Assembly (NCBI RefSeq): GCF_003073045.1 | Contig: NC_037593.1 | Location: forward strand, 29,329,367-29,393,366 | DNA: 64,000 nucleotides | Direction of reading: 5' to 3' | Source of the DNA: Pomacea canaliculata | Taxonomy: Eukaryota | Shown: in pieces, positions 30,357 to 63,881 of the stretch | Layout of the letters: the number at the start of each line of letters is the position of its first letter | Numbering within the stretch: position 1 is the first letter of the stretch | Translations under genes and position numbers: made by a program | Notes under the pieces: model-generated | The model's input: the letters and a program-made list of their open reading frames with translations, nothing else | What the model was told of the DNA's origin: nothing | The model's database searches: none

Positions 30357-30390
30357 GTCACGTGACCACCTTGCCGCGTGCGCAGCCAAT
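30357..30390 (+). promoter_or_regulatory. Palindromic E-box decamer GTCACGTGAC (30357-30366) plus CCAAT box (30386-30390), ~200 bp upstream of the SULT-8 start codon
   Basis: 'catgtcacgtgaccaccttgccgcgtgcgcagccaatgacag'. Position -210 to -180 relative to ATG 30567. Confidence 0.45.
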
Positions 30391-38255: not shown

Positions 38256-38502
38256 ATGGAGTCAGAAGTTGCCCAAACAACGCCAGCCACATCACGTGAC
38301 CTCTCTGCCCGCTATGGGACAACAGGAACTCTGACTTACCTCGGAGATGACCCCCGACCTTTCACCTATGTTCTCGACGGTTACGCCTGTATGCCGTTTG
38401 TTCCACCGACGCTGTCGACGACTTTAGATGTTCATATTGATAATCTCAAAAACATGCAGCTTCGGGATGATGACATGATAATATGTGCTTATCCTAAGGC
38501 AG
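38256..38502 (+). CDS. SULT-10 cytosolic sulfotransferase (subfamily II), coding exon 1 of 5
   Basis: ATG at 38256 'MESEVAQTTPATSRDLSARYGTTGTLTYLGDDPRPFTYVLDGYACMPFVPPTLSTTLDVHIDNLKNMQLRDDDMIICAYPKA(G)'. GTGGGT donor. Confidence 0.85.
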
Positions 38503-40719: not shown

Positions 40720-40829
40720 GAGAAATAGGAGACTGGAAAAACTATTTCACGGTGGCCATGAGCGAAAAAATGGACGGCGCCATTAAAGACCGGATGGAAG
40801 GACTTCCTTACGGCCTGCAGTACTCGTGA
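40720..40829 (+). CDS. SULT-10 coding exon 5
   Basis: 'catttgcag|GAGAAATAGGAGACTGG'. '(G)[35 protein letters not shown]'. TGA stop at 40827-40829. Exon sum 984 nt. Confidence 0.85.
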
Positions 40830-41340
40830 TGCCGGCCATGATGTTTTGTTTATTTACACAATCAGCTCCCTCTGCACCCAGATGTGTATTTCTAAGCGTT
40901 CAAAAACTGTCAGCCCTTTGACCTTTCAGACACAATTTAAGACACTGTAATGTATGATTATCCAACTACTGTCATATCAGAACTCTCATGTAATCAGAAA
41001 TATAATTCACACATATAATTATCATATATATCACACATATAATTATCCCTGTATAAAAGTCGTTCACTTTACAGAACCTACACAGGTGTGCGGCAATGGT
41101 TGGTGTGATCGAAAACAAACGTCGTCTTCTTTGATTTTTCAATAAAACTTTATTTATTTAGCAACGGTTTACTGAATAATGTGCTCGTGTTTGTGTAAAA
41201 AAAAATTTTACAGATTAATGTTACACCTTTACATCAATACAAATTAATATCAAAATATATATTACATCAACTAATAAGGAAGAAAAATATACAGATATAT
41301 ATATATTCAAGTGTCGATTCCCAAGTAGAGTCTAGTATCT

Positions 41341-44300: not shown

Positions 44301-47300
44301 CACTCACTCACTCACTCACTCACTCACTCACTCACTCACTCACTCACTCACTCACTCACTCACTCACTCACTCACTCACTCACTCACTCACTCACTCACT
44401 CACTCACTCACTCACTCACTCACTCACTCACTCACTCACTCACTCACTCACTCACTCACTCACTCACTCACTCACTCACTCACTCACTCACTCACTCACT
44501 CACTCACTCACTCACTCACTCACTCACTCACTCACTCACTCACTCACTCACTCACTCACTCACTCACTCACTCACTCACTCACTCACTCACTCACTCACT
44601 CACTCACTCACTCACTCACTCACTCACTCACTCACTCACTCACTCACTCACTCACTCACTCACTCACTCACTCACTCACTCACTCACTCACTCACTCACT
44701 CACTCACTCACTCACTCACTCACTCACTCACTCACTCACTCACTCACTCACTCACTCACTCACTCACTCACTCACTCACTCACTCACTCACTCACTCACT
44801 CACTCACTCACTCACTCACTCACTCACTCACTCACTCACTCACTCACTCACTCACTCACTCACTCACTCACTCACTCACTCACTCACTCACTCACTCACT
44901 CACTCACTCACTCACTCACTCACTCACTCACTCACTCACTCACTCACTCACTCACTCACTCACTCACTCACTCACTCACTCACTCACTCACTCACTCACT
45001 CACTCACTCACTCACTCACTCACTCACTCACTCACTCACTCACTCACTCACTCACTCACTCACTCACTCACTCACTCACTCACTCACTCACTCACTCACT
45101 CACTCACTCACTCACTCACTCACTCACTCACTCACTCACTCACTCACTCACTCACTCACTCACTCACTCACTCACTCACTCACTCACTCACTCACTCACT
45201 CACTCACTCACTCACTCACTCACTCACTCACTCACTCACTCACTCACTCACTCACTCACTCACTCACTCACTCACTCACTCACTCACTCACTCACTCACT
45301 CACTCACTCACTCACTCACTCACTCACTCACTCACTCACTCACTCACTCACTCACTCACTCACTCACTCACTCACTCACTCACTCACTCACTCACTCACT
45401 CACTCACTCACTCACTCACTCACTCACTCACTCACTCACTCACTCACTCACTCACTCACTCACTCACTCACTCACTCACTCACTCACTCACTCACTCACT
45501 CACTCACTCACTCACTCACTCACTCACTCACTCACTCACTCACTCACTCACTCACTCACTCACTCACTCACTCACTCACTCACTCACTCACTCACTCACT
45601 CACTCACTCACTCACTCACTCACTCACTCACTCACTCACTCACTCACTCACTCACTCACTCACTCACTCACTCACTCACTCACTCACTCACTCACTCACT
45701 CACTCACTCACTCACTCACTCACTCACTCACTCACTCACTCACTCACTCACTCACTCACTCACTCACTCACTCACTCACTCACTCACTCACTCACTCACT
45801 CACTCACTCACTCACTCACTCACTCACTCACTCACTCACTCACTCACTCACTCACTCACTCACTCACTCACTCACTCACTCACTCACTCACTCACTCACT
45901 CACTCACTCACTCACTCACTCACTCACTCACTCACTCACTCACTCACTCACTCACTCACTCACTCACTCACTCACTCACTCACTCACTCACTCACTCACT
46001 CACTCACTCACTCACTCACTCACTCACTCACTCACTCACTCACTCACTCACTCACTCACTCACTCACTCACTCACTCACTCACTCACTCACTCACTCACT
46101 CACTCACTCACTCACTCACTCACTCACTCACTCACTCACTCACTCACTCACTCACTCACTCACTCACTCACTCACTCACTCACTCACTCACTCACTCACT
46201 CACTCACTCACTCACTCACTCACTCACTCACTCACTCACTCACTCACTCACTCACTCACTCACTCACTCACTCACTCACTCACTCACTCACTCACTCACT
46301 CACTCACTCACTCACTCACTCACTCACTCACTCACTCACTCACTCACTCACTCACTCACTCACTCACTCACTCACTCACTCACTCACTCACTCACTCACT
46401 CACTCACTCACTCACTCACTCACTCACTCACTCACTCACTCACTCACTCACTCACTCACTCACTCACTCACTCACTCACTCACTCACTCACTCACTCACT
46501 CACTCACTCACTCACTCACTCACTCACTCACTCACTCACTCACTCACTCACTCACTCACTCACTCACTCACTCACTCACTCACTCACTCACTCACTCACT
46601 CACTCACTCACTCACTCACTCACTCACTCACTCACTCACTCACTCACTCACTCACTCACTCACTCACTCACTCACTCACTCACTCACTCACTCACTCACT
46701 CACTCACTCACTCACTCACTCACTCACTCACTCACTCACTCACTCACTCACTCACTCACTCACTCACTCACTCACTCACTCACTCACTCACTCACTCACT
46801 CACTCACTCACTCACTCACTCACTCACTCACTCACTCACTCACTCACTCACTCACTCACTCACTCACTCACTCACTCACTCACTCACTCACTCACTCACT
46901 CACTCACTCACTCACTCACTCACTCACTCACTCACTCACTCACTCACTCACTCACTCACTCACTCACTCACTCACTCACTCACTCACTCACTCACTCACT
47001 CACTCACTCACTCACTCACTCACTCACTCACTCACTCACTCACTCACTCACTCACTCACTCACTCACTCACTCACTCACTCACTCACTCACTCACTCACT
47101 CACTCACTCACTCACTCACTCACTCACTCACTCACTCACTCACTCACTCACTCACTCACTCACTCACTCACTCACTCACTCACTCACTCACTCACTCACT
47201 CACTCACTCACTCACTCACTCACTCACTCACTCACTCACTCACTCACTCACTCACTCACTCACTCACTCACTCACTCACTCACTCACTCACTCACTCACT

Positions 47301-49342
47301 CACTCACTCACTCACTCACTCACTCACTCACTCACTCACTCACTCACTCACTCACTCACTCACTCACTCACTCACTCACTCACTCACTCACTCACTCACT
47401 CACTCACTCACTCACTCACTCACTCACTCACTCACTCACTCACTCACTCACTCACTCACTCACTCACTCACTCACTCACTCACTCACTCACTCACTCACT
47501 CACTCACTCACTCACTCACTCACTCACTCACTCACTCACTCACTCACTCACTCACTCACTCACTCACTCACTCACTCACTCACTCACTCACTCACTCACT
47601 CACTCACTCACTCACTCACTCACTCACTCACTCACTCACTCACTCACTCACTCACTCACTCACTCACTCACTCACTCACTCACTCACTCACTCACTCACT
47701 CACTCACTCACTCACTCACTCACTCACTCACTCACTCACTCACTCACTCACTCACTCACTCACTCACTCACTCACTCACTCACTCACTCACTCACTCACT
47801 CACTCACTCACTCACTCACTCACTCACTCACTCACTCACTCACTCACTCACTCACTCACTCACTCACTCACTCACTCACTCACTCACTCACTCACTCACT
47901 CACTCACTCACTCACTCACTCACTCACTCACTCACTCACTCACTCACTCACTCACTCACTCACTCACTCACTCACTCACTCACTCACTCACTCACTCACT
48001 CACTCACTCACTCACTCACTCACTCACTCACTCACTCACTCACTCACTCACTCACTCACTCACTCACTCACTCACTCACTCACTCACTCACTCACTCACT
48101 CACTCACTCACTCACTCACTCACTCACTCACTCACTCACTCACTCACTCACTCACTCACTCACTCACTCACTCACTCACTCACTCACTCACTCACTCACT
48201 CACTCACTCACTCACTCACTCACTCACTCACTCACTCACTCACTCACTCACTCACTCACTCACTCACTCACTCACTCACTCACTCACTCACTCACTCACT
48301 CACTCACTCACTCACTCACTCACTCACTCACTCACTCACTCACTCACTCACTCACTCACTCACTCACTCACTCACTCACTCACTCACTCACTCACTCACT
48401 CACTCACTCACTCACTCACTCACTCACTCACTCACTCACTCACTCACTCACTCACTCACTCACTCACTCACTCACTCACTCACTCACTCACTCACTCACT
48501 CACTCACTCACTCACTCACTCACTCACTCACTCACTCACTCACTCACTCACTCACTCACTCACTCACTCACTCACTCACTCACTCACTCACTCACTCACT
48601 CACTCACTCACTCACTCACTCACTCACTCACTCACTCACTCACTCACTCACTCACTCACTCACTCACTCACTCACTCACTCACTCACTCACTCACTCACT
48701 CACTCACTCACTCACTCACTCACTCACTCACTCACTCACTCACTCACTCACTCACTCACTCACTCACTCACTCACTCACTCACTCACTCACTCACTCACT
48801 CACTCACTCACTCACTCACTCACTCACTCACTCACTCACTCACTCACTCACTCACTCACTCACTCACTCACTCACTCACTCACTCACTCACTCACTCACT
48901 CACTCACTCACTCACTCACTCACTCACTCACTCACTCACTCACTCACTCACTCACTCACTCACTCACTCACTCACTCACTCACTCACTCACTCACTCACT
49001 CACTCACTCACTCACTCACTCACTCACTCACTCACTCACTCACTCACTCACTCACTCACTCACTCACTCACTCACTCACTCACTCACTCACTCACTCACT
49101 CACTCACTCACTCACTCACTCACTCACTCACTCACTCACTCACTCACTCACTCACTCACTCACTCACTCACTCACTCACTCACTCACTCACTCACTCACT
49201 CACTCACTCACTCACTCACTCACTCACTCACTCACTCACTCACTCACTCACTCACTCACTCACTCACTCACTCACTCACTCACTCACTCACTCACTCACT
49301 CACTCACTCACTCACTCACTCACTCACTCACTCACTCACTCA
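41341..49342. repeat. Giant uninterrupted tetranucleotide microsatellite (CACT)n, ~8.0 kb, ~2000 units (AGTG on the opposite strand)
   Basis: Every 60-nt line from 41341 to 49320 reads cactcactca... with no variant base. The tract ends 'cactcactca|gacttttttt' at 49342 and begins after 'gtctagtatct' at 41340. Confidence 0.97.
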
Positions 49343-50300
49343 GACTTTTTTTATTTGTCACTGTCAGATTTGAACACACCACCTTTCAGTCTTCAGACCT
49401 CGTCTTTAGCCACCAGGCTATACAGCCGTTAGCAACTAACGTGCCTAAACTTCGTGAAAAAGTCAAGTTCGCCGTTTACAACAATCAACAAATCCGCTGA
49501 ACCGAGACGCACACGCCCAGAACCGGTGACGTCATCGACAACGAGGCTGCTGTTAACGAAGATGACTAGTGCACGACGGACCACAAACACCCTGCTACTG
49601 TCCCCCTAGGTCCCTCCAACTGCCAGGAACACACACGTCATACTCAATGGAGTGAACAAGATCGGAGTGACAGACGGCAACAACCTACCCGATCCTCTCC
49701 CCTCCAGACATCATTGTACGCGTGGTCAGAGTTGCCTGCCCAGTCAATGGAGGACATCGAAAACGGACAGCAGTACCCTACAAAGAACACCAACAAGAAA
49801 TAAGTGACAAGATGGCCCGGCCCTCCACAGTTCATGACAATTGCTATCCCATAATGTCGAGGACTGTGTGTGGACGGCAAGACACAATCAAGACAAGGGA
49901 GAGAATAAGTTTCACTGACCCAGTGACTACGCGACACGAGGTGTCCGTGCTAACGGTCACCAGGACACAGCACGGGACTCACCCGTGAAAATATTTCACA
50001 TCTTCAACTGCGACATCGACGGTTTGCTCGTGAAAACACACTATCCTGGCTTTGTACAAAGCATTAACGTGTTTGTTATTGTGTCTTACAGACATTGCTT
50101 GACGTCAGCAGTACACTGCAATGTTTCTCTGACTTCCAACGATACTTCAGTCCTGCTTCTACACTTACATCGCAAGGAAGAGCTGCCGGCCGATATCCTT
50201 GTTTTAGTAAAAAATGTATTTAATAAGTTTTTGCATAGACTGCAGTGTACGGTTGACAATTTTATTTTATTGCAATTTGACACCGAGTTTAACGAGACAA

Positions 50301-51293
50301 GTAGTTTACTGGCATGGACTCCTGTAGCCTACTGGCCGAAGTGGCTCATCATGTCTAGAGTACGCCCCGTGGAAAGCGGAATCAAAGCTTTCCCTCCTCC
50401 ACATTTACATCTGTAAGCTTTGTGTGTGTGTGTGGGTGCGTGCGTGCGTGGATGAGAGAGAGAGAGGGTGTGTGTGTTCTAGAGAGTGAGCGTTCTCTCT
50501 CTCTTTCAAGTCTCACTGGAGGGGTGCACGCATGTGTGTGTAAGAAAGAGCAAGATCACATTAAAAGAAATCCGTGATGACGCTCAATAAATAAATAACT
50601 AAATCATTATTCACCTTTCGATTTGTAACCGCATAAAATTCTAGAATGTGGAAAGGGATGGACTGCGGGTCAGCATTCATATGAAGACTGTTTTTCTACT
50701 CTCACCATCATGACAAGTGATCACTTGTTAGGATTTTCGAAACAAGTGAGATCACATCAGAGTTTGAAAAATATCAGTCTCATCAAAATAACCGACCTGA
50801 GGTCACTTGTAGGCGGCCATCTGGATGCACATCAAACACATGAACAGATGGCTGGCTTTATGCTTACAAACACTACCTGATGGAACATTACATGTGGAAA
50901 CACAGTGGCTAGTCAAGCAGCTAGTCCATCATGCCTTTGGCTTGAGTTTGTACTGAGCAACGCAAGCACTCGTAACCAAGCTAGCTATGTGCTAGCATAA
51001 TGCTTGGCATGGCCAGGATGAACAGACAAACAAACAAGCTAGCTATGTTCTAGCATAATGCTAGGCATGGCCAGGGTGAACAGACAAACAAACAAGCTAG
51101 CTATGTGCTAGCATAATGATTGGCATGGCCAGGGTGAACAGATAAACATGAATAAATGAGCGAAGTAGTTTACTGGCATGGACTCCTGTAGCCTACTGGC
51201 CGAAGTGGCTCATCATGTCTAGAGTACGTCCCGTGGAAAGCGGAATCAAAGCTTTCCCTCCGCCACATTTACATCTGTAAGCTTTAAATAGCT
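50301..51293. repeat. Two ~128-bp direct repeats (50301-50428 and 51166-51293) flanking a ~60-bp x3 tandem minisatellite (50940-51140) and (TG)n/(GA)n tracts
   Basis: 'agtagtttactggcatggactcctgtagcctactggccgaagtggctcatcatgtctagagtacg(c/t)cccgtggaaagcggaatcaaagctttccctcc(t/g)ccacatttacatctgtaagcttt' occurs twice. Between them, 'caagctagctatgtgctagcataatgcttggcatggccagggtgaacagacaaacaaa' repeats three times. Confidence 0.8.
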
Positions 51294-51649
51294 CCTTATA
51301 AATCAGGTAGCCACTTTTATTTTTACTGAAAAGAATGAGCAGGATGGAGAGTGGGGGGGGTGGGGAAGCAGAATCCTATCCACAGGCCACAAACCAGTGA
51401 CCATATGCAGTAACTTCCGAACACGAAGTCTACCCTTATTCTAAGGGGTGACTAATACATTTACTTTTGCATTATCCTAACATAAAAAATTCCATTTAAA
51501 ATGAAAGAAAAACTGGATAAAAAATAAAAATACGTTAAATGAACAATGTCAGTGACACTAACTCAGATGAAGTGATGATCCAGACATTTTAGAGTTGGCT
51601 AATATCGATGCAGTCTTGGCTTGCATCACATTAGAATGCTAAATTTTGA

Positions 51650-52350
51650 TTGCCGAGGTAGTCACGTGACCGTGGTGACGGGCCTGGCGACCTACCCGTC
51701 GTAAAATATGCGGCGTTCAATCGGAGCGCCAGTTGAGAAGGTGAAGAAATGGGTGATTTACCAGTCGACACACCACGTGACCTATCAGACGCGCGCGCAG
51801 CAATCAGCGGAAGGGGGTAGGGGTTCGGTTACCAATTAGGTCGGGAGTGCCGGCGATTAGCTGCCGAGCCTTGCACCTTGGCCCAGTGGGCCGCGGGCGG
51901 ACGCAAGTCAAACAAGTGTGCCGCGCGAGGACCGCGCCAGTGCACGTGCGACGCGTGGCGACACGGTGCGCCTAATGAGGCGGTCAGCCTCGTGCCGCGA
52001 GGGGCGCCCGTGCACCAGACCTGACGTAGGGCTGTTGTGCGGCGTCAAAGTTGCAGCAGCTCGTCGAACGCCGCCGACCTCGGGTCCGAGTCCCCCGATG
52101 TACCACTCCCGTGCACCCACCAGCCTCAAACATCCTCAATAGCCTCCCCTGGCAAAAGAGAAGTGGTGCGCGGGAAAATGACACGCCGGAAGTGGCATGA
52201 AAGTGATGGCGCCTTCACACACCAGTTGGCAATCATTGACTAGGTTACCGCAGCTTATTCTTCCATTGTCGGAGCAAACCAGCGAGCAGTTTGCCCTCGC
52301 CCCCCGCTTCTGTCAGACTGTAGAGCGGGACCCACATCTGTGTGCGCGCG
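51650..52350. other. CpG-rich, GC-rich island-like segment (~700 bp) without a convincing ORF. Candidate CpG-island promoter or non-coding locus.
   Basis: Dense CG dinucleotides, e.g. 'gccgcgggcggacgcaagtcaaacaagtgtgccgcgcgaggaccgcgccagtgcacgtgcgacgcgtggcgacacggtgcgcc..cgtcgaacgccgccgacctcgggtccgag'. Includes GTCACGTGAC at 51661-51670 and CACGTG at 51774. Both strands carry only overlapping ~70-aa ORFs typical of GC-rich noise. Confidence 0.5.
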
Positions 52351-53040
52351 TGCGAGAGAGAAAGAAGGATAATCGTGAAGGAGTGAATAAAACTTACATT
52401 TGAGAAACACCTCCAAGAAAAGACAAACGTATAGTTCAGAATAAACGCAAAAATAAAAACGGTATCTTGAGAGAATGTCGATGCTAGATATCAGATATCA
52501 GATATAAATTATAGCAAATTGTATTGAAACAGATTTTCAATGGTGTGAAGAGACACGCTGGTCATTAGTGTCAAAGTGTCAAATGATACAGTAAATTATT
52601 TAACACCTACATACAGCAAGGTACACGACAGTAAACCCAGACATTATTGTGACTGTCTGTGGTAAAGTTTGTTTTAAATATACATTATTTTTTCATAAAA
52701 TAAGTAAACTATAAGCTAAACTACATCGTCCTCGTCATGTGTCATTTTAAAATTTGGACTGACATGTAGATGTTAAATTGTTACATATTTTTAAAAAGTT
52801 GATTTTGTCAGAGCTTTCTAGCATCAATGCTGTTAAATTACAATAGATAAGTTGATGTGTTTGGCAAAATATGTCGGACTTCTCTATTATATTTTATGTG
52901 AGATATGTTTGCCACATTCCACAGCTGGTCCATGCACAAAAAAACAAATTCCAAATTTCCGAACCCACAGTCCGAACACTTCCACTGTCACACACATCTT
53001 ATGTTCTTCCGACATTCAATTCCCCCTCCCCCCTAAAAAA

Positions 53041-53270
53041 AATCTCCAGTTGAAAATGACACCAAGTCTCCACTTGAATATAACACCAAGTTTCCACTTC
53101 TAGGTAACACAAATATGTCCACTTGAATATAACACCAAGTCTCCACTTGAATATAACACAAAGTTTCCACTTCTAGGTAACACAAATATGTCCACTTGAA
53201 TATAACACAAAGTTTCCACTTCTAGGTAACACAAATATGTCCACTTGAAAGTAACACAAAGTTTTCACTG
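53041..53270. repeat. Minisatellite, ~22-24 bp unit x ~9-10
   Basis: Alternating units 'ccacttgaatataacaccaagtct' / 'ccacttctaggtaacacaaatatgt' repeated in tandem. Confidence 0.8.
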
Positions 53271-55634
53271 ACACCGATGCTCTTCCTGAAGTTATTTCTA
53301 ATTCAGCTCTGGTTGGTGAGCCCGAGGCGGATACGATGAATAAGCGAAGATCAAACAACAAAAGTGAGAAAAAAAAAACCCACAAAAACCTGGAGAAAAA
53401 AAGTCTTTTGCTAAATGGCAAGTTCAAAACTTAACTAACATTCTTCAAACATTAAACACACGCTCACCGAACAATCAACAAAGATACACACTCACCTCCA
53501 AGATACAAATCTGGTCAGGATGTGCCCAGTCCAGTCAAGGCTAACTTCAATTCTGTTCAGGACTTGTTAAATAACACAATCTGGTCAGGATGTGCACAGT
53601 CGGTCAGGACTACAACACCAAGTCGGTTCAAGACTTGTTGCAAACAAACTGATGACACACTGATGACACCGAGGAGACTGTTACTTCTCCCGCCCGTCAA
53701 GGAAAAACTCACACAACAACATCCCAAACACTCAAACACTCTTTCCTTTGTTCTTCGAACAAAACAACCTATCAACACCAGTTGATTAAAAAAAAAAAAA
53801 AACAACAACAAAAAAACAAAGCCCGGCCGGCCATCCCTGTGTGGCGCGCACTCAGACAGTATTGCTGTCTTTCAACCTCCCCTTCCAGTTACTTTTTCCC
53901 TGTCTCCTTCCTAGCTCAAAAAAAAAAAAAAAAAAAAAAACATTAAAAAATATAGCGCAGCAGGTTTGTGACATACCTCAATCTCATTTATTATTACTTT
54001 CTTTGTTTAAACGTCTGGTCAAACAGATTTCTCAAATCATGAAGTGGAGTCATATCTGGCGTCCTGTCGGTAGAGGTTGTTGCTACTAATCCACTGAAAG
54101 ACTTTGCAGCTTACATATCTTGTATTATTTAATTTTAACATAATGATTATCTAAAATTGGAACTTTTGTAGTTAAAAATAATTTTTGTGCATCAACACTC
54201 TGGCCAAACAGACACACAACAACAAAAAAAAAGAAAAAAAGAAAACAATGTCTAAACTTTTGACATAAAGGCACGAGAGTGAGTAGTGTTCATGGAGTGG
54301 TGAAATACTAAATTAAGGATGAATGAAAACGGTCCAGCTGATATTCAGTCTGCATCAAACCTTTAAATGTCATGTCAACATCATCTTGTGTGATAATGTA
54401 TGTGGACTGCCACTTGTTTGGCAGTAACAAGTTGGTTATTTAACTAATAAGCTTTGTCCGTCAATGGAGAAGCAGCCAGAGACATTGGTGTGGAAGGAAT
54501 GTGCCATGTCGCATTATGTAAAAAATACTGTCATGTTTGAAATGAGTGTAATGGCGAAGCCTGCAAGGAAAAATAACTTTGGTACACGGGAAATGGCCAA
54601 AAGCAGCTTTACATGTAGGATCATCGAAACACAAATCATTTCCGGTCAGTAGGTCGCGCACGATTCTCCATTGGGTGTGGGAGCCCCTCACAGGGTGCAA
54701 ACGTACCCACTCTTTGGTTTGAGATCATAAAGCATTCTTGTAGTGACGATCATATAATAAATCGTGCTCGAAAGGCAAGTTAATGGATGAGTTTCTCATG
54801 ACAATGGCCAACATGCAAATTTCTCTGTTAGGATCAAGTTAATTATACATCTACAGAGGTTTTCTCTCAGTGATTCTTTAATTGTGTGGAGGACGTTTGC
54901 GATTGGTTTGTGGCTGTCGAACCTTTGCAGTCAGATGTTCCGAAATGTTTGTAAAGGAGACATGCAGGACATATAAGTCACAGGGCAGAGACATTCATTT
55001 TGTCCTTTTCAGTTCGGAAAAGAATTACCTGCAGCTGATATAAATTACATCAAGCCTTATGAAACTGATATAAAGCCTTGTGGTTACTACTTCATAGCAG
55101 CTCTCAGTTCCACGTTCGCTTGGCCCAGTGACAAGAAAAAGCTCTTCTAGGAGCCTAGAGCCAGTAAACCACTCACAGTTAGCCCACTCAATGTATCATC
55201 ATCGTTATTTCCTAAGATAGCAGTTTCATAATCCACTTACCGGAAATTGGTCATGAAGCCTTTGTTGAAGCGAGACATTCGATGAGATAAAATCTGAGAA
55301 GAAGGGGAACTGCCAGGGTCGAGACTGGAACTGTTTTCCCGTCAGACAATGTTTCAAAGTACAGCACCCTTTCCTTTCTTTAGCAACCAGTAGGTGAGAC
55401 AAACACAAATGTTTAGCTTAGTCTCGGGATTTTTTCTAAACCGAGTATATTTGACGGCGCCATCGTTAGGACAACAAGGAAAGGACTTTCTTTGAAGTTA
55501 TAAGTTATCGGTAGCCGTGAGATCAGATCCCGTCCCCAACACACCTTTTTTTTTTTTTTTTTTTTACCTTCTTTTCCGTACTCCCACCCGGCTAGCCTCT
55601 TGGTGACAAATTATGGGTAATGATCAGTAATGCA

Positions 55635-55880
55635 GTGGCGTAGGAAGATGTTCGGCGTTGGGGGGGGGCAAATTCCCTGCTGACAGTGAACGGCGTTCGC
55701 ACTCGCACGGTGATGACCGTCTCCTCTCTACGTTCCCCTACCTTTCTTCTGTTCTTTGCTCTTTGTGAGGAATTACGTCTCAAATATTGGGGGGGCAAAA
55801 GGATATTCCTGCCCCCCCCCCTGTATTTTCCTTGGGGGGGGGGCGGCTGCCCCCGCTGCCCCCCTGGTTCCTACGCCACT
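55635..55880. repeat. Perfect 14-bp inverted repeat (cagtggcgtaggaa / ttcctacgccactg) bracketing ~220 bp that contains G9-10 and C9-10 homopolymer runs. A T25 run lies immediately 5' at 55546-55570.
   Basis: 'cagtggcgtaggaagatgttcggcgttgggggggggcaaattccctgctgacag ... ggggggcaaaaggatattcctgcccccccccctgtattttccttggggggggggcggctgcccccgctgcccccctggttcctacgccactg'. Confidence 0.75.
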
Positions 55881-57699
55881 GTATCTTCGAAGATGCTTTC
55901 AAAACGTTTGTGTATATCTGACCTTTTAGATAACGAGGGTTCATTCTTCGTGCAACACCATATATATACTAGAAACTTTACAGAGCATATTACCCACAGC
56001 ACAGAGCTAATGACAGTTCATCGTCCCTACTAGGGTCGTCGCTCTCCACATGTTCAGCCAACTAGAATACAATAACACAAATACATACACACACTCGCGC
56101 GCGAAGGCCGTACACACAGGTGGTTTCCGGGGTCACAGGGGAGGTAATCCGCGGTGACGTCACGGGGCTACTAGCACGTGCTGCTGAGAACTGAACCAAA
56201 CCACGTCGATTCCGGAATGGTCCTGGGAGGCGATTCCAGGAGGCTCCAATTCTTCAGCCCATACACTTAAAACCTGTAACTCGAGGTTACACTATACTAA
56301 TTCTCCAATTCTCACATCTTGTTCTCTTATGTTAATGACTCGAAACCTGCATTATATCCATTACAATTTCACAAAAAAATGGCATTAATACGATTCGAAA
56401 GAATTTAGACAGACGAAAATAGACGCGTATCCACGTTATGCAGATTCTGAAATCCGTTGTTCAATGCAATGCAAGTGGGTAAAAAAAAGTCTACTTTTTT
56501 ACTCTTTTTTTTTTTTTTCGAGTTGGCCTCATCTTTCCCAGTATGAGCTGCTTATTCTCCGCTGATGAAGTTTTCGTTTTGTGCCGCTCAGACGCTTGTT
56601 TAAAGGTCGGACTGAACTGAGAGCATTTGAAGCAGGGAGGTAACTGCGCGCTCACGACGTACAAGAGATTACGGCCCTTTCACTAAAAAAAATTACTTCA
56701 CAAACTCTAGGATTTTAAAATCTGGGGCTGCCTGAACGCTAATCATCTGGAATTCGATAGTATTAGGAGAAATTTGTACTGTGCTAAATTACGCTAAGAT
56801 TAATCTTTTTTAAAATGATAATGTGCTAGCCCATTCACCTGAGATTCTATATTCTATATATTTGGCATTGTCGCTTGACTTTCCTAGAGACTGCTAAAGG
56901 TTTGGGCTGCGTGTGTGCTCTGGAATGTCAGTCCGGGGGCTGGGGCATTAACAAATGGCTAAAAACTATCAGGTATTGTCTGGGTGGCTTCGTCTCCCTA
57001 ATTTGTGACTAAATAGTACAGTTAGCAACATCACTAATTAACATTAATGAAACGTCACCAGCTATCTCTTAAAATTATTTTATTTATCATGGTATTTTAG
57101 TAAAACAGAAAACAAGACACTTTAATGAAAAGTTCGCAAAATAATTAAGTCTGAAGACGTACTGTGAATATAGTTTTTTTTTTAATCCATTAACTTTTAT
57201 ATGTCCACGCGGCATGATGGCCCAGCCCTGTCCACGCAGCGAATCGGCATGAGAAGGCAGGGCGGGGAGTCGGACTAGCTTCACCACTGGGCAAGGATGG
57301 CTGATGGCTGATGGTAAGAGGAGGGTTGGCTTAACGAGAACTGCCGAGGTCGCTGACGTCACGCTCCCGAAGGCTCCCAAAGTTTTTCCCTTCACTGAGA
57401 CCTTTATTTAAAAAATTCAGCTCCCGGGGATGAGTAATTTTCCGCAATTCTTTCCGGCCAAAACCTACTGGTGAACTGTCTTCACTAAGCACTTTCTGTC
57501 TCAGTTAACCCTTTCCTATCTAAGGTTTACATACATTCAACATATACGTTAGTCCCTGAGCCACCAAAGGGTTAAACACTCCGTAAAACACGGGAGGCAA
57601 GACTGGTCCCTGACAATGAACTTCTATGTATTTTATTACTGGCGCTACACTTTAGTCTCTATGGACTGAAACACACAGAAGTAGTCAGACTGCATCACG

Positions 57700-58760
57700 T
57701 GTGGAGGATCAACCAGACCATCTTATCTGACGTCCCATCTGTCATCGACAGCCACTGCCAGCAGATGCAGGATCATCGATTAAAAACTTGTCCATTCTTC
57801 GAGTGATCAATACAGAGCTTTTAGCAAGATCAACTTTGGATGGACTTTAACAGCTTTCTTATCTGCTAGTTGATAACGGCTCGCAGTTTGTATGTCATCT
57901 CGCCTCTGCCTGTCTGTCCATTGCTAACAGAAGAATTACAGCTATCAGGTTGTGTCCAGTATGTCAGAGTTTTCCCTTCACATGTCGTCTGCTCCATGTT
58001 CTACATTTTGGCCTGTAGACAAGTATGTTTTCATCACCTCCGCTCGAAACCGATACATGCCTCGTTTCTAAGTAAGGCTGTGAAATAGTTGCTGACATGG
58101 TGTAAGACTCCAATTAACTAACCTACAATTAGGCATTGCCACCTGTGGGTCTCTCTCTCTCTTGTGTGTGCATACTTAGTGTTTTGGTAAACATCTAGGA
58201 GAAAATTGTAGTTAAGAGAATAAAACCGAGGCCTGACACAAAGGTCCCATCTGTCATTGCGAACAGATATCAGATTATCTATTAAAATCTTTCTCATTTC
58301 AGTGTGATCAGTGCTGAACTTGAAGTAAGATCCCTATTGGATCGATTCTTGCATCGTTCTTAGCTGCTAGCTGATAAAGGTTTTTTCTGTGTTCGCGTAC
58401 GCCATACACTGTTAAGGCGTCTGGAAAAGGAGTGGTCACGTGACATTACTTTTTTTGTTTTCTCTCGTAATTTGTTGCTGGAGCCGGCCGGTTGTTTGTA
58501 AATTCTTTTTAGTACAAATCTTGATTGATCTTTCTCTCAATAACCTTCGTAGCCTCTTTCATCATTACAAGAAATTTTTTTTTTAATTTTTAAAAAAACT
58601 AACAACCGGTTAATTATGCAATCATTCTATACTAAGAAACGTCAGAGCTTCCCTAAACGATGGTAAAGGACACCGGCTCCTGGACTATCCAGTAAAGAGA
58701 GACAAAATGTTAATCATATATAAATTTCTCAGAATTGTCACTAAGTAAAATTGTTCAAGA
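57700..58760. repeat. Internally tandem-duplicated intergenic block (sub-units ~57700-58100 and ~58250-58760). It is a paralogous copy of the SULT-11 5' flank and intron-1 region (60560-62040), including a promoter-like segment with GTCACGTGAC at 58435-58444
   Basis: 'ggagtggtcacgtgacattactttttttgttttctctcgtaatttgttgctggagccggccggttgtttg' (58431-) vs 'ggagtggtcatgtgacagcattttttttctcttttctcccttcttgcgctggccgcttgtttg' (61691-). 'ggacaccggctcctggactatccagtaaagagagacaaaatgttaatcatatataaatttctcagaattgtcactaagta' (58671-) vs 'ggacgccggctcatgaaccctccagtatagggagacacaatgtgaatcatagacaaatttctcagagttgttgctaagta' (61941-). 'tttcttatctgctagttgataacggct' motifs recur at 57861, 58361 and 60661. Confidence 0.7.
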
Positions 58761-58850
58761 GTCACCAGGCTGAGCTGAGTCGTTGCTATGCCAACTTGTT
58801 CAACGAGTAAAGGTGTGTCCGCTTAGCAAATGTTGAGATAACTGTGAGTT

Positions 58851-58960
58851 TCACGAATACTGTATGACATAGGGCAGGTCTTTCAACTCTTTCTCCACGA
58901 CTGCGTCCATCTGCTCGCTCATGGCCACAGTAAGATAGTTCTTCCAGTCGCCCACCTCTC
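58851..58960 (-). CDS. SULT-11 coding exon 5
   Basis: 'gttccag|GAGAGGTGGGCGACTGG'. '(G)[35 protein letters not shown]'. TGA stop at 58851-58853. Exon sum ~921 nt. Confidence 0.8.
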
Positions 58961-59175
58961 CTGGAACACAAACATACAAAGATTCATTACATCAGGTAGA
59001 TGATAAATCAAACAGGACTTTTTTCTTCATTTTGGATGATATGTTGAAAAATTTATGTCTCGCCATATTGTAACACACTGAGGAAGGTTATTTTTAAAAT
59101 ACCGACAGTCTTCAAAATTTGTCCTTTTTACCATAGTGTGATAGCATTGACAAGTAGCACAATATCCATAATTAC

Positions 59176-59362
59176 CTTTTCTGTACATATTCATCTTTCT
59201 ATGTGGAATATTTTTGCTTTTGGTAAATTCTGGAATGGCTTTCTTCTCATCCTGTTTCTTCATGTTCTGGAAGCTGCAGGCCTCTGCGATTTCTTCACAC
59301 AGTTGCTGTGATGCTGGAACTTCCAAAAACTCAGCAATCTGCTTTACTTTATCTGAGGGACT
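59176..59362 (-). CDS. SULT-11 coding exon 4
   Basis: 'tttttcag|AGTCCCTCAGATAAAGTAAAGCAG'. 'SPSDKVKQIAEFLEVPASQQLCEEIAEACSFQNMKKQDEKKAIPEFTKSKNIPHRKMNMYRK(G)'. GTAATT donor. 187 nt. Confidence 0.8.
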
Positions 59363-59558
59363 CTGAAAAACAAGTTTTATGCAAATATAGACACAATCTA
59401 AATACTAATTCTATATTTGACAAACCACTTGAAAGAGATGTAGACCTAATAAATTCAAATCTCTAAAATATCTCAGAATGGAACCAGAGAATACTGATGC
59501 CTGTTGTCAAGACAAAATTGTGTAAATTGTATCAGAGATTTGCAGTGGCCTTACAAAC

Positions 59559-59662
59559 CCGTTTCATATCTTCAAAGGAGATGGATAATATAGGAATGTT
59601 CGGATTTTCTTGGGTAAAATCGTGAAACTGCCGCAAGTAACTGAAGTAAGCACCATAGTTGA
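59559..59662 (-). CDS. SULT-11 coding exon 3
   Basis: 'tgtttcag|TCAACTATGGTGCTTACTTC'. '(x)NYGAYFSYLRQFHDFTQENPNIPILSISFEDMKR'. GTTTGT donor. 104 nt. Confidence 0.8.
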
Positions 59663-59905
59663 CTGAAACAGAACAAAATGTACAATCCCTTTATTATTGT
59701 AAGTCATCGAATGGAAAGATGAGACAGACAGGGACAGAGAGGGGAAGGCCAAGAAGCAGATACAGAAAGAGTGTAATCAACGTGTAGAACATACCTGTAC
59801 ACATACACACATATATGTGACAAGGGGCAGATAATTTCTGCTGTAAAAGTTACTCGTTTGCTCCCCTTTTTATGCAAAAAAAAATAATAAATCATATTTG
59901 CTTAC

Positions 59906-60223
59906 CTTTGCCATCTAAGAATCGTTGAAAAAATTCTGAAAATTCAACGAATGTATTGAAAAGGTTCTTTTGCATGAAGTAGAAGGATACAACAGTGTCC
60001 TTAGGATTGCGATAAACATGAAGGACCTTGACACGCTTGTCTCTGATCTGTTGCCACGGCAACATAGAAAACGGAAGATGCGTATTGAGGATGCGCGGAG
60101 ACGCCATGGCCGCTACCATGTCCACGTCGACAAAGTCGACCATCAGCTGTTCCTTGCGACGAGTCTCGTACTCGGCCTTGCCTTGCAGCAACATGGAGGT
60201 CACCTCCCACAGCCAGTGAGTTC
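59906..60223 (-). CDS. SULT-11 coding exon 2 (318 nt)
   Basis: 'ttggtcag|GAACTCACTGG'. '(G)THWLWEVTSMLLQGKAEYETRRKEQLMVDFVDVDMVAAMASPRILNTHLPFSMLPWQQIRDKRVKVLHVYRNPKDTVVSFYFMQKNLFNTFVEFSEFFQRFLDGK(G)'. GTAAGC donor. Confidence 0.8.
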
Positions 60224-61300
60224 CTGACCAACAGATATGGACACAGAGTGAGTTGTTGACTAACAAAGATGGACACGCCTAATTAATTCGACATACCGCA
60301 AAATGGGGTTCATATCTCCCACAATAGCCATCTGTCGCAGTCTTGGTCAATGTAACAGGTTAACAATAGTCCTTCCCTCCACAGCAAAAGTTTCTTTTAA
60401 TCACTGAAGATTTCCATGCATACAACCTCAGCTCCATCTCATTGAAGTGAGGGAGGGATCCAAGGGTTAAATTTGTTAATTTTAAAGAGTGGATCTTTTG
60501 TATAAAGAATTTTTTTTTTATTTTGAAGGAATTGGTGGCTGTCAACTATGTGAGGTTCAGTCCTTGCGAGCAGACGGCTGCCATGTCGATTTAAAGCTTG
60601 CCCGTTGTATTTGTGATTGATGCAGATATAGGAACTTTTAAACAAGATTCTAAAGCCAAAACCTTTCTTATCTGATAGTTGATAAAGGCTTTCTTGCACA
60701 CCCACGTGTGTGTGGTGGTGGTGGTGGTGGTAGGAGACAGGTACAGCCATTATGTCCTGCCCCACTTTGCCAGAGCTTTGAAGTACAAGCCGTCTGCTCC
60801 ATGTTCTACATTTTGACCTGTTCATGAAATGTTTTTATTACCCCACCTTCTGATCTTTTCTGGCGTGTTTCATCAGAAAGGCATTACCATTTGTGATTTT
60901 GCTCTCTCTCTCTCCCTCCTTCTCGTGTATGTGTGTATGAATATTTAGGCCCTCGTTATATTTTTAATCAAGAACAAGGGGTGTGCTTATCAAATGAGTT
61001 CGTGCAAACAAGTGTTTGCCAGCAAGCATTCGTGTAAAGGTGAGAAAAATGTGAGGCAATTGTTAGAACTACAGCGAGTAAATCTGCTGAACAGCAGTGG
61101 TCGTGGGTTACCAAATTAAACCTCAGCCTCTTTCTGATCATAGTCAGACGTCTCTCACCTTATTCTGATATCTGTTATTTCCCCCATCAACCTGAGTCCT
61201 ATCTCTCTCTCTCTCTGACCTCTTTCACATCACATCATACTTCACATCAATCTCATCCCTCTCACTACAGTCTGACCCCTCTCAGAGTCGGACATCTTAC

Positions 61301-61502
61301 CTGTTTTGGGGTAGGTACACAGCAGGATGTCATCGTGTCGAAGCTCCATGTTGCGCAGATCATCGATGTGTTTCTCCCACTCCTCTTTGTTAAATCGGAA
61401 ACTGGGCAGAGGAATACCTTCTACCAGCCAGTAAATTGGATCAAGCTTGCCATCTTTCTCGTTTTCCATCTTGAAAGAGCTGTTGTGTTCCTGGCTTGTC
61501 AT
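61301..61502 (-). CDS. SULT-11 cytosolic sulfotransferase (subfamily III), coding exon 1 of 5
   Basis: Probable ATG at ~61502 (minus) 'MTSQEHNSSFKMENEKDGKLDPIYWLVEGIPLPSFRFNKEEWEKHIDDLRNMELRHDDILLCTYPKT(G)'. GTAAGA donor. The ORF track extends upstream to ~61559 with a non-ATG start, so the start is uncertain by 1-2 nt and up to 57 nt. Confidence 0.65.
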
Positions 61503-61696
61503 TCCACCTGAAGCAACGGTCGGGACTGCACTGACAGCGACGAAATTATCTAGTGTCACGCTTATGTTTGTTTAACAATTTACCTCTGGGAGACCCTTTA
61601 AATATTTTCTTTCGTCTGCTATCGGCAGTGTCTGTCCTGTGACTGCTGAAGGCCGTGCGAGAGCATTTTTATAGGTGTCAAGTTATGGGAGGAGTG

Positions 61697-61706
61697 GTCA
61701 TGTGAC
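61697..61706 (-). promoter_or_regulatory. E-box variant GTCATGTGAC ~140-200 bp upstream of the SULT-11 start
   Basis: 'ggagtggtcatgtgacagc'. Its duplicated paralogous copy at 58435 carries the perfect palindrome GTCACGTGAC. Confidence 0.4.
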
Positions 61707-62618
61707 AGCATTTTTTTTCTCTTTTCTCCCTTCTTGCGCTGGCCGCTTGTTTGTTATTTATGCGACAAACCTTGACTGGTTTAAGCCAGTGGATTTAGCA
61801 ATAGCGAAAAACATGGGGGAATAAAATCATAAACCTGCTTTGTAGTAAGCGGTCTCATTTCTCTTTCAAACACCTTCTTGACCCTTTTCATTACTATTAT
61901 TGAAATAAATGTTCTTCAGTACTAAAAAAAAAAAAAAAACGGACGCCGGCTCATGAACCCTCCAGTATAGGGAGACACAATGTGAATCATAGACAAATTT
62001 CTCAGAGTTGTTGCTAAGTAGTTTGCGCCTCTAAAATCTCATTACCATGAGATGAACAGGGTTATTATGTCCTTCACTTTTAACTAGATATGAAGGAAAA
62101 AGGCAAGAGACTGAGGCTATGATCGAGAACTGCCACACTCTGAGCAAGAAGTAATTTGAAAAAAAAATTGAAAAAAACTAGACAAGACCCACATATCTTC
62201 AAGCTGGTCAGAATATATTATCCCGTTCAATTCATATTCAATGTTGACCAAAAATTCAACATACACTCCATCTTATAAAGTATTTGTGTGTATGTGTGTG
62301 TGTGCGCTAGTTAACTCCATACCGTTTGTTCCATCCTAATGAAATTTTACAGAGGTTCCTCTTTTGTCTATGGAAAGGTCTCAGGCCGTTTTAAATCTTA
62401 ATTTTACTTCTTACAAATCTTAAATTGTGGAGTTTCACACAAAGGCCACTTATTCACTATGTTCATATTTCACAGCCATGTAGATTGTAGATTAATTGTG
62501 GTAAAGGTGGATCATACAGATCAATGTAGGTATAGTGTAGGTATGTTTATGTGTAACTAATTACACTTGTTAACGAAGCATACATAAATATCAAAAGGTA
62601 TATCCTATCAATCGTTAT

Positions 62619-63881
62619 ACAGTGGAACCTCGGTTAGCGAACGCCTCGGATAGCGAATATTTCGGTTAACGAACAAAAATTTCGTTGAAAGTTTGTCTCG
62701 GATAGCGAACAAAATTTCGGATAACGAACAGCCACGTGAACCACACGTGACCGACCAGCATGTCATCATTCGCGCTCGAGACACAGTTACGATCGGTCGT
62801 TCCTTATCTGTGTGCATCCTTCTTATTTAGTGATAAGATATTTAAATAAGATAATCCTCAATCATGGCTCCAAAGAAAAGTCTGTAGAGAAGTCTTTCCC
62901 TAACAGTGCGATAGGCAATATGAGCCTAAACATGTTCAGTGTACTGCTGTGTATATGTAGTACACATACTTCTATGTATGTGTATACACCTTGTGCTTTA
63001 CGGTATATACTGCTGTACTACTGTATGAAGTTCATATACTATTTTGTATATGCATGTATCTGGGATAGCTGGATTTTGAGCAAGAGTTTGGACAGCCAAC
63101 AACAAGAAAAATAAGAAAGTAATACAGATAGAACCCTGCTTACGAAGTCTATCTCAGTAAACTTTATGGGACCCTTGAATTTTCGGGAGAAGGAACAATC
63201 GAGAAGTGACCTCCTCTACATGATGATGATGAGGATGAGGATAAGTTTCGTGCACCCAGCAACACATTTTGACCGCCTGCTGCCTTCCAAGTGATGATAA
63301 GCATGGAGGGTTTCTTTGTCTGCAAGATGGCCGAGACCAGCAACATCTGTCTTTATGGAGCAGAGTTTATGTTCTGTCAAATTCTACTTGAGTGATTTTA
63401 TTTTCGTTTTAAAAGGAGTCACAAAGCTTTCGTGCTGCATAGAAAACTGTGTGGCATTTAATGATGTTAATATAGAGGAGTGTGTGGAATTTAATGATTT
63501 CAGTATAGTTGTTGGCATTGCAGGTTCAATTTATGTCTCTTGCACGTTGAGAAATATTTCATAGCCGGAGCGCTGTTTAATGTTTGAATGACTGTAGGGG
63601 TCTTTCATACAGATTTCACATTAAAGTATATCATAGCTACGCAAATAACATTAACAGTGAAAATAATCCACCCTTTCCATTCTCAAGATACACACCCACA
63701 AACATCAGCATGCACAGGTCAAGGCCACTCGTACAGACGTCAGAGTTGTACATAGCGATTAACCAATTAAATATATTTCTTTTATTTCTTATGGGAAAAA
63801 CTGTTTCGGATAACGAACATTTCGGATAACGAACAACTTTCCAGAACGGATTATGTTCGTTAACCGAGGTTTCACTGTATT
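62619..63881. mobile_element. Non-autonomous DNA-transposon-like element (~1.26 kb) with terminal inverted repeats and subterminal 'TTCGGATAACGAAC' direct repeats
   Basis: 5' end 'tacagtggaacctcggttagcgaacgcctcggatagcgaa..ttcggataacgaacagcc' (62619-62735). 3' end '..tttcggataacgaacatttcggataacgaacaac..cgttaaccgaggtttcactgtat' (63793-63881). Termini are reverse complements (tacagtgGaacctcggttaGcgaac / tacagtgAaacctcggttaAcgaac). No transposase-like ORF inside. Confidence 0.6.

Follow-up and report, generated by a model that had tools for sequence, protein, structure and literature searches.

Introduction

Truncated unprocessed duplicate pseudogenes are known from tandem gene clusters, and detoxification families such as the cytosolic SULTs evolve by birth and death. 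Shadow enhancers are defined by activity. Among transcription factors, those of the USF-type bHLH-ZIP group prefer the class-B E-box. The CLEAR, or class-B, E-box GTCACGTGAC is bound by MiT/TFE bHLH-ZIP factors (PMC9562866). The known CLEAR network comprises vertebrate lysosomal and autophagy genes (PMC9562866), whereas the genes at issue here are SULT genes of a snail.

Here we describe region A, an exon-less partial paralogue of the 5′ end of SULT-11 in Pomacea canaliculata, with its limits, its junction to the parent gene and its missing exon and TATA box. Like unprocessed partial pseudogenes, region A lies head-to-tail beside its parent, matches the non-coding 5′ region of that parent in collinear order and has lost its coding capacity by deletion, within an array of 11 paralogues. 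Unlike typical cases, it consists of promoter and intron-1 pieces with nothing coding and carries an extra local duplication of an intron element, X. Because nothing coding survives, region A is undetectable by protein-based pseudogene searches. Its E-box, a putative binding site, is the exact 10-bp CLEAR consensus; the live SULT-11 promoter departs from this consensus with a weaker CATGTG form. As with shadow enhancers, a second set of cis-elements (E-box, GATA palindrome and AGGTCA-type element) lies a few kilobases away. In contrast to them, region A is defined here by its sequence, several of its motifs are degraded, and it includes core-promoter-proximal sequence from which the core itself (TATA box and start region) has been removed.

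Results

SULT-11 is a five-exon gene on the minus strand (61502-58851) of the window, the whole 64-kb stretch of DNA analysed. The gene model has clean AG/GT boundaries, with the stop codon at the low-coordinate end of exons 2-5 (position 58851), and its 306-aa product is 100% identical to C0Q70_08307 / XP_025090233.1. By tblastn, the flanking array contains 11 SULT paralogues in both orientations. GenBank gives the SULT copy at 38.4-40.8 kb and SULT-11 consecutive locus tags, C0Q70_08306 and C0Q70_08307. A twelfth close paralogue, XP_025090203.1, is intact and 81% identical to SULT-11; it lies on the same chromosome-scale contig outside the window. The exon-5 peptides of SULT-12 and SULT-11 differ solely in the last residue, a near-identity that points to conversion within this subfamily.

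The original prediction held that 57700-58100 and 58250-58760 resemble 60560-62040. A blastn self-comparison of these regions finds similarity beyond short motifs (E down to 6e-17), in the form of at least four collinear, same-strand blocks that cover both promoter and intron 1. These are the 83-bp distal promoter block P2 (82%, E 6e-17), the E-box block P1 (74%), the intron-1 element Y (92%, E 3e-8) and a GATA-type palindrome (57854-57881 with 60663-60690, 93%). The chained local alignment of 57600-58800 with 60450-62100 scores 339, ∼15 SD above shuffles (238 ± 7). The resemblance is nevertheless discontinuous, in that islands 82-93% identical alternate with stretches whose similarity sits at the detection limit, and its limits are corrected to 57726-58760 for region A and 60556-62034 for region B, the real 5′ end of SULT-11 (Table 1).

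In gene orientation, region A comprises P2, P1 with its E-box, X2, a microsatellite, Y and X1, and region B comprises P2, P1, TATA box, 5′UTR, exon 1 and intron 1 with Y and X. From A to B, the P2 blocks are 3273 bp apart and the P1 blocks 3262 bp apart, a period that corresponds to the length of the SULT-11 gene plus promoter. Region A begins ∼90-100 bp past the SULT-11 stop codon (P2_A ends at 58747-58760), which is the junction geometry of a head-to-tail duplication, and it ends within intron-1-derived sequence at 57726. Smith-Waterman alignment with shuffle controls found no resemblance to the SULT-11 gene body left of 57726 and nothing matching beyond P2, and nhmmer searches with the X, Y and P models (E<0.05) found no further copies in the rest of the window.

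Table 1. Coordinates of SULT-11, regions A and B and their shared elements
Feature	Position	Strand	Basis or remark
Region A, exon-less partial paralogue of SULT-11 5′ end	57726..58760	-	nhmmer envelopes; Smith-Waterman with shuffle controls
Region B, real SULT-11 5′ end	60556..62034	-	self-comparison, gene model, nhmmer
SULT-11 exon 1, ATG to GT donor	61301..61502	-	gene model
SULT-11 exons 2-5 (60223-59906, 59662-59559, 59362-59176, 58960-58851)	58851..60223	-	AG/GT boundaries
P2_A, distal promoter block	58665..58747	-	68/83 identical, ungapped, to 61938-62020, E 6e-17
P2_B, distal promoter block, 436-518 bp upstream of SULT-11 ATG	61938..62020	-	self-comparison
P1_A, proximal promoter block with E-box	58428..58499	-	self-comparison, motif search
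P1_B, proximal promoter block with variant E-box GTCATGTGAC at 61697-61706	61690..61754	-	motif search
Putative TATA box of SULT-11, TATAAAAA	61666..61673	-	read from sequence; function inferred
TATA-equivalent position in A, reads CCTTAACAG	58400..58427	-	alignments
X1, copy of intron-1 element X	57726..57890	-	nhmmer, alignment, motif search
X2, second copy of intron-1 element X	58239..58391	-	nhmmer E 2e-43, X model
X_B, intron-1 element X	60556..60697	-	nhmmer, alignment, motif search
Y_A, copy of conserved intron-1 element	57980..58016	-	34/37 identical to 60785-60821
Y_B, conserved intron-1 element	60785..60821	-	core AGGTCAAAATGTAGAACA at 60802-60819
(TC)n(TG)n microsatellite	58150..58171	.	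sequence; collinear with 60903-60939, SULT-11 intron 1

The SULT-11 stop codon is followed ∼100-185 nt further on by the distal block P2_A and, at 58587, by ATTAAA, the first poly(A) signal past the stop. P2_A is probably inside the SULT-11 3′UTR, and region A as a whole makes up SULT-11 3′ flank and probably part of this 3′UTR.

The proximal block P1_A contains a perfect 10-bp palindromic E-box, GTCACGTGAC, at 58435-58444. The shared E-box segment GGAGTGGTCA(C/T)GTGAC that had been described earlier is indeed present at 58429-58444 and 61691-61706, and the P1_A core TGTCACGTGACCAC is common to the SULT-8 promoter. The GTCACGTGAC motif recurs upstream of 8 of the 11 SULT copies; for TCACGTGAC, the window contains 11 sites against 0.65 expected (∼17-fold), mostly upstream of SULT copies. 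Region A has the perfect, ancestral palindrome and the live SULT-11 promoter the CATGTG form, an observation that counts against reading region A as a plain relic.

SULT-11 has its putative TATA box ∼24 bp downstream of the E-box, and the ATG follows ∼165 bp later. At this position region A has no such core element, reading TTAACAG against the TATAAAAA of B, and its similarity to B stops just below, at ∼58395-58400. The SULT-8 promoter is also without a TATA box, so this element is not obligatory in the SULT family.

Element X is present twice in region A. X1 and X2 are 68-70% identical (E 2e-9) over 57732-57879 and 58244-58380, whereas 57882-58243 shows no similarity above shuffles to 58381-58800; the proposed internal tandem duplication therefore applies to one ∼150-bp element and not to a ∼500-bp unit. 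X2 occupies the place expected for the 5′UTR, exon 1 and 5′ intron 1. In all three X copies, conservation is highest in the core of the GATA palindrome. This palindrome has three GATA motifs in X_B (TTCTTATCTGATAGTTGATAA at 60665-60685), two in X1 (TTCTTATCTGCTAGTTGATAA at 57856-57876) and one in X2, where the palindrome has decayed to a single GATAA (motif matched with 2 mismatches).

SULT-8 and SULT-11 each carry an exact Y core in intron 1, and the two genes share an AGGTCA half-site; the Y_A core, AGGCCAAAATGTAGAACA at 57997-58014, is one mismatch from consensus, and region A has AGGCCA. TCACGTGAC and the Y core appear to be real cis-elements of the SULT family, since the former is over-represented upstream of SULT copies and the latter is exact in SULT-8. 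Around the microsatellite, 58131-58162 weakly matches 60879-60913 in collinear position.

We searched for any coding remnant of the second copy. Using SULT-11 and its closest paralogue as queries, tblastn found no SULT-like sequence in 40826-58851. A profile HMM built from 12 exon-1 peptides, which detects each of the 11 genuine exon 1s (E 1e-24 to 1e-29), had a best match of E 2.5 in 40.8-58.85 kb. Both searches bear out the statement that no SULT exon 1 follows the 58.4-kb copy. The open reading frame at 57087..57395, rightly judged not to be SULT-like, has no Pfam match and only 42 codons counted from its first ATG. Downstream of region A there is no Pfam domain, Rfam family, tRNA or SULT exon. 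Region A thus lacks the TATA box, 5′UTR, exon 1 and 5′ part of intron 1 of B.

Discussion

We favour the view, to which we assign a probability of roughly 0.6, that region A is what remains of a dead tandem copy of a SULT-11-type gene, namely its truncated head, because the blocks are collinear, in gene orientation and start where the next head-to-tail unit would. The collinear homology to the neighbouring parent includes non-coding parts, which excludes a retrocopy, and coding capacity is lost. The original prediction of a twelfth SULT copy surviving as a partly deleted remnant agrees with this collinear geometry, but the number needs qualification: since an intact twelfth paralogue, XP_025090203.1, is already found beyond the window, the relic is an additional, dead copy.

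In the order of events that we infer, a ∼3.27-kb unit that started just upstream of P2 and extended ∼90-100 bp beyond the stop codon would have been duplicated head-to-tail. The downstream copy would later have lost its TATA box, 5′UTR, exon 1 and 5′ intron 1 (∼60700-61655 of the live gene), would have gained X2 as an extra copy of the 150-bp element X at the lost exon-1 position, and would have lost everything beyond X1, exons 2-5 included. The leftover is a series of ancestral cis-elements, P2, the CLEAR-type E-box, Y and the GATA palindrome, amid heavily diverged sequence. Region A is most likely inert as a promoter today. The sequence gives no support to the label "orphan promoter", given the loss of the TATA box, 5′UTR and exon 1 and a search that found no downstream coding sequence.

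It is possible, although rather unlikely, that region A is instead a retained or co-opted regulatory module. Such a module could act on SULT-11 and its neighbours from downstream as a "shadow" enhancer, using the same bHLH-ZIP (E-box) and GATA-type factors as the true 5′ end, or it could drive, without a TATA box, an unannotated non-coding transcript, such as an unstructured lncRNA, leftwards from ∼58.4 kb. The perfect GTCACGTGAC of a motif found upstream of 8 of 11 SULT copies, and the superior preservation of the GATA palindrome core in all three X copies, are consistent with this, but other motif cores are degraded, with AGGCCA for AGGTCA and GATA motifs lost. The SULT-8 promoter likewise has no TATA box, yet in region A the 5′UTR and exon 1 are absent as well as the TATA box, and the sequence further downstream contains no ORF, Pfam domain, Rfam family or tRNA. 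The islands of 82-93% identity in a detection-limit background show a pooled excess over one-sided constraint (152/176 identical versus 77% expected if the live copy alone were constrained, P = 0.002), but this statistic is ascertainment-biased, the islands having been picked as best-matching blocks, and their conservation can predate the death of the gene or come from gene conversion, as SULT-12 exon 5 suggests for this subfamily. By JC K, X2 (0.39) is about three quarters as old as the A/B split (0.54). If X2 arose with the exon-1 deletion, the islands were long kept without an exon, which would argue for function or gene conversion.

A related reading, which we regard as doubtful, is that the relic has been kept and not merely left, as a duplicated 3′ enhancer or non-coding promoter tuning SULT-11 or the SULT cluster. 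The CLEAR-type E-box, P2, the intron-1 AGGTCA-type element and the two GATA-palindrome copies would then act jointly, and a dead gene duplicate would have donated regulatory DNA to its surviving neighbour.

That the shared blocks are short dispersed repeats (MITE, SINE or other TE fragments) present twice near SULT-11 is highly improbable. Three local copies of X and nearby mobile DNA, a TIR-bounded element at 62617-63880, would suit this origin, but A and B agree in the order, orientation and approximate spacing of at least four distinct blocks, the remaining 60 kb is without another copy of any block, and 55-64 kb has no inverted repeats of at least 30 nt. The E-box and Y cores, moreover, lie at equivalent positions in SULT-8 (promoter and intron 1), as gene-linked cis-elements do and transposons do not. 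An assembly artefact, in which a complete downstream SULT copy was collapsed or mis-joined, is scarcely credible: a suspiciously perfect 8004-bp (CTCA)2001 array 8 kb to the left does make the assembly unusual nearby, but the repeats flanking the missing segment (X2 versus X_B or X1) are 61-70% identical and far too diverged for collapse, region A runs without a break into the intact 3′ end of SULT-11, and its decay (substitutions, lost TATA box) is unlike the product of a mis-join.

As the probable remains of a lost gene copy, region A is the kind of by-product that tandem gene duplication ordinarily leaves, and it is not demonstrably a new promoter. For annotation, the fitting label is a promoter/intron-1 relic of a lost SULT copy overlapping the SULT-11 3′ flank, not a gene or new promoter. 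Were the relic active, it would be a case of regulatory DNA outliving its gene, a modest and unsurprising point. Its value to the biology of the family is as a natural paralogue footprint, in which pieces retained by the relic and by SULT-8 are likely to be cis-regulatory elements of a detoxification gene family that has expanded in the snail. The footprint consists of the TGTCACGTGACCAC E-box, the intron-1 sequence AGGTCAAAATGTAGAACA, the GATA palindrome and the distal block of 83 bp.

Organization of SULT-11 and the Adjoining Probable Relic

The window contains eleven intron-containing cytosolic sulfotransferase (SULT) genes, mapped by tblastn on both strands. The minus-strand gene SULT-11 is modeled with five exons and clean AG/GT boundaries, and its 306-aa product is 100% identical to C0Q70_08307/XP_025090233.1 of Pomacea canaliculata, which identifies the window as DNA of the golden apple snail. 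C0Q70_08305 and C0Q70_08306 correspond to the copies at 33.7–35.4 kb and 38.4–40.8 kb, respectively, so that no GenBank-annotated gene lies between 40.8 kb and SULT-11. A literature search for descriptions of the P. canaliculata SULT cluster found nothing relevant.

Beside SULT-11 lies region A (57726–58760), an exon-less partial copy of the true 5′ end of the gene, region B (60556–62034). These limits come from nhmmer profile searches, in which none of the blocks has an additional copy elsewhere in the window at E < 0.05. Four collinear, same-strand matches connect the two regions in a blastn self-comparison and repeat search, the blocks stay in register in MAFFT alignments, and the chained local alignment scores 339, against 238 ± 7 for shuffles. 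The resemblance described in the original prediction is therefore real, but it is not continuous: the regions share a string of islands, between which similarity is at the detection limit (the observed score is reached by 8–9 of 200 shuffles). Within the proximal block, the E-box island is identical at 24 of 28 positions. Smith-Waterman alignments with shuffle controls find no resemblance to the SULT-11 gene body left of 57726 and no match between the regions beyond the distal promoter block.

Coordinates of SULT-11 exons, blocks shared by regions A and B, and CLEAR-type E-box sites
Feature	Position (region A for blocks)	Position in region B	Strand	Remarks
SULT-11 exon 1	61502–61301		minus	gene model
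SULT-11 exon 2	60223–59906		minus	gene model
SULT-11 exon 3	59662–59559		minus	gene model
SULT-11 exon 4	59362–59176		minus	gene model
SULT-11 exon 5	58960–58851		minus	gene model; stop codon at 58851
GATA palindrome block	57854–57881	60663–60690		93%, 26/28 identical
Y block	57980–58016	60785–60821		92%, 34/37 identical
P1 (E-box) block	58428–58499	61690–61754		74%
P2 block	58665–58747	61938–62020		82%, 68/83 identical, E 6e-17
TCACGTGAC sites	2376, 6274, 8572, 11040, 16258, 16549, 28809, 30357, 38292, 51661, 58435			window

In gene orientation, SULT-11 comprises a distal promoter block (P2), a proximal promoter block (P1) with the E-box GTCATGTGAC, TATAAAAA (61673–61666), the 5′ UTR, exon 1 and the 5′ part of intron 1, followed by a (TC)n(TG)n microsatellite, the intron-1 elements Y and X, and exon 2. 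Region A runs from P2 and P1, with the E-box GTCACGTGAC, directly into one copy of X (X2), and continues through the microsatellite, Y and another copy of X (X1) into unrelated sequence. Relative to region B it lacks about 60700–61655, comprising the TATA box, the 5′ UTR, exon 1 and ∼600 bp from the start of intron 1; where the TATA box would be expected, it has CCTTAACAG instead. The internal tandem duplication of ∼500 bp proposed earlier reduces to the ∼150-bp element X (57732–57879 matches 58244–58380 at 68%, E 2e-9, in the blastn self-comparison). A 505-bp tandem unit was rejected, as 57882–58243 and 58381–58800 align by Smith-Waterman at shuffle level.

Searches by tblastn with SULT-11 and with its closest paralog find no SULT-like sequence in 40826–58851; two matches at 57.3–57.9 kb, considered as SULT exon remnants, are attributable to chance (E 1.2–6). 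With a profile HMM of twelve exon-1 peptides, 11 of 11 genuine exon 1s are recovered (E 1e-24 to 1e-29) and no SULT exon 1 is found in 40.8–58.85 kb, where the best match has E 2.5, which bears out the prediction that none follows the 58.4-kb copy. The open reading frame at 57087..57395, also predicted not to be SULT-like, indeed carries no Pfam signal; it is listed under the bacterial code with a GTG start and spans only 42 codons from its first ATG. Stop-to-stop segments of at least 45 codons in 49.3–58.8 kb yield no credible Pfam match (one to DUF2512, below cutoff and in a low-complexity stretch, was taken as chance), and scans of 49.3–64 kb recover no Rfam family or tRNA.

Origin of Region A

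Region A is best read as a truncated relic, devoid of exons, of a tandemly duplicated SULT-11-type gene. Its P2 block ends at 58747–58760, against the SULT-11 stop codon at 58851, and the spacing between the two copies of P2 (3273 bp) and of P1 (3262 bp) matches the combined length of SULT-11 and its promoter. From this geometry we infer the head-to-tail duplication of a ∼3.27-kb unit that extended from just upstream of P2 to ∼90–100 bp after the stop codon. Region A would then be the start of the downstream unit, whose coding parts would have been lost later.

The suggestion of a partly deleted twelfth SULT copy is thus supported as regards partial deletion, with “twelfth” to be qualified: an intact twelfth paralog, XP_025090203.1, exists elsewhere on the chromosome, and the relic is therefore an extra, dead copy. 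This paralog shares the 34.7-Mb contig with the window but lies outside it. In the SULT-11/XP_025090203.1 subfamily gene conversion is plausible, and likely at the 3′ end of XP_025090203.1, because the two exon-5 peptides are the same save for the last residue despite an overall identity of 81%. Separately, the RefSeq model of XP_025090203.1 carries a 60-aa N-terminal extension, beginning at an ATG within TATAAAAATG, that is translated 5′ UTR homologous to 61503–61667; its N terminus is probably over-predicted.

Past the SULT-11 stop codon, the first minus-strand poly(A) signal is an ATTAAA at 58587, so the P2 block of region A probably lies within the SULT-11 3′ UTR. The next signal is an AATAAA at 57637, and a long 3′ UTR isoform would cover the whole of region A.

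Conserved Islands and Residual Activity

Region A has the E-box core TGTCACGTGACCAC in common with the promoter of SULT-8, where it lies in the same orientation at 30357, ∼210 bp before the ATG; SULT-10 has the form ATCACGTGACC. The CLEAR motif GTCACGTGAC is recognized by MiT/TFE factors (PMC9562866). Eleven distinct sites in the window match the CLEAR-type E-box TCACGTGAC, versus 0.65 expected from shuffles. By comparison with the tblastn map, eight precede the first coding exon of a SULT copy by 0.2–1.7 kb; two of the eight, 16258 and 16549, fall between copies 4 and 5, which are divergently oriented. This pattern suggests that the whole cluster shares a bHLH-ZIP input, and copies with TCACGTGAC more than 1 kb upstream possibly possess non-coding leader exons. 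CACGTGAC is also preferred by USF-type factors. The annotated CDS of C0Q70_08306 includes the SULT-10 E-box (38292–38300), read there as part of ...SRDLSARYG..., which suggests that the GenBank model reaches at its N terminus into the promoter or leader.

SULT-8 (31013) and SULT-11 (60802–60819) both carry the Y core AGGTCAAAATGTAGAACA without mismatch in their first introns, against a chance expectation of 0.18; the copy in region A differs from it at one position (AGGCCA). The palindrome TTATCTGATAGTTGATAA in SULT-11 intron 1 contains three GATA motifs, two of which are kept in X1 and one in X2. Judged by these E-box, Y and GATA sequence comparisons, the islands coincide with family-level conserved non-coding elements, of which the region A copies are partly degraded.

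The Jukes-Cantor distance is 0.54 between X in regions A and B and 0.39 between X1 and X2. With constraint on the live copy alone, the islands are expected to be about 77% identical. The values for P2 and the E-box block are compatible with this figure (P about 0.2); those for Y and the GATA palindrome lie above it (P 0.02–0.03), as does the pooled value (152/176, P 0.002), in a test biased upward because the islands were picked as best-matching blocks. This excess could be taken as a sign that region A retains residual regulatory activity, but it may also stem from that bias, from a time when the copy still worked as a gene, or from gene conversion. With SULT-8 as outgroup, only two core changes are informative, one per lineage, with no bearing on relaxed constraint: the E-box CpG was lost in the B lineage, and AGGTCA became AGGCCA in the A lineage. 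Region A keeps the ancestral CpG-containing E-box, while SULT-11 itself has CATGTG, and should X2 have arisen together with the deletion of exon 1, the relic would have spent most of its existence without exons. On these two grounds we grant residual activity some weight, although we consider it unlikely. The sequence gives no backing to the label “orphan promoter.”

Neighboring Repeats

A (CTCA)n array at 41339–49342, between SULT-10 and a gene-poor stretch, spans 8004 bp in exactly 2001.0 copies, with 100% matches and zero indels; an uninterrupted run of this length is unusual, and the array is either a true microsatellite of giant size or an artifact of assembly or polishing. The CpG-rich segment 51650–52330 (GC 0.49 at 51–52 kb) carries GTCACGTGAC at 51661, CCACGTGAC at 51774 and GCACGTGC at 51943, holds no recognizable gene, Pfam domain or RNA family, and may be a further orphan island of promoter-like character, or else a repeat. 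Two minisatellites, 50977–51148 (58 bp × 3, 93% matches) and 53038–53269 (24/49/73-bp periodic repeats, 75–96% matches), are found in the gene-poor sequence that follows the relic downstream. A ∼1.26-kb element (62617–63880), lying ∼600 bp beyond the distal promoter block on the upstream side of SULT-11, has 26-nt terminal inverted repeats (92% complementary) beginning CAGTGGAACCTCGG, TA on its flanks and TCGGATAACGAAC sub-repeats inside, and resembles a non-autonomous Tc1/mariner-type DNA transposon.

Implications for the SULT Family

As a product of birth-and-death evolution in a tandem gene family, the relic is nothing out of the ordinary. In practice it can serve as a paralog footprint that flags candidate SULT cis-elements.
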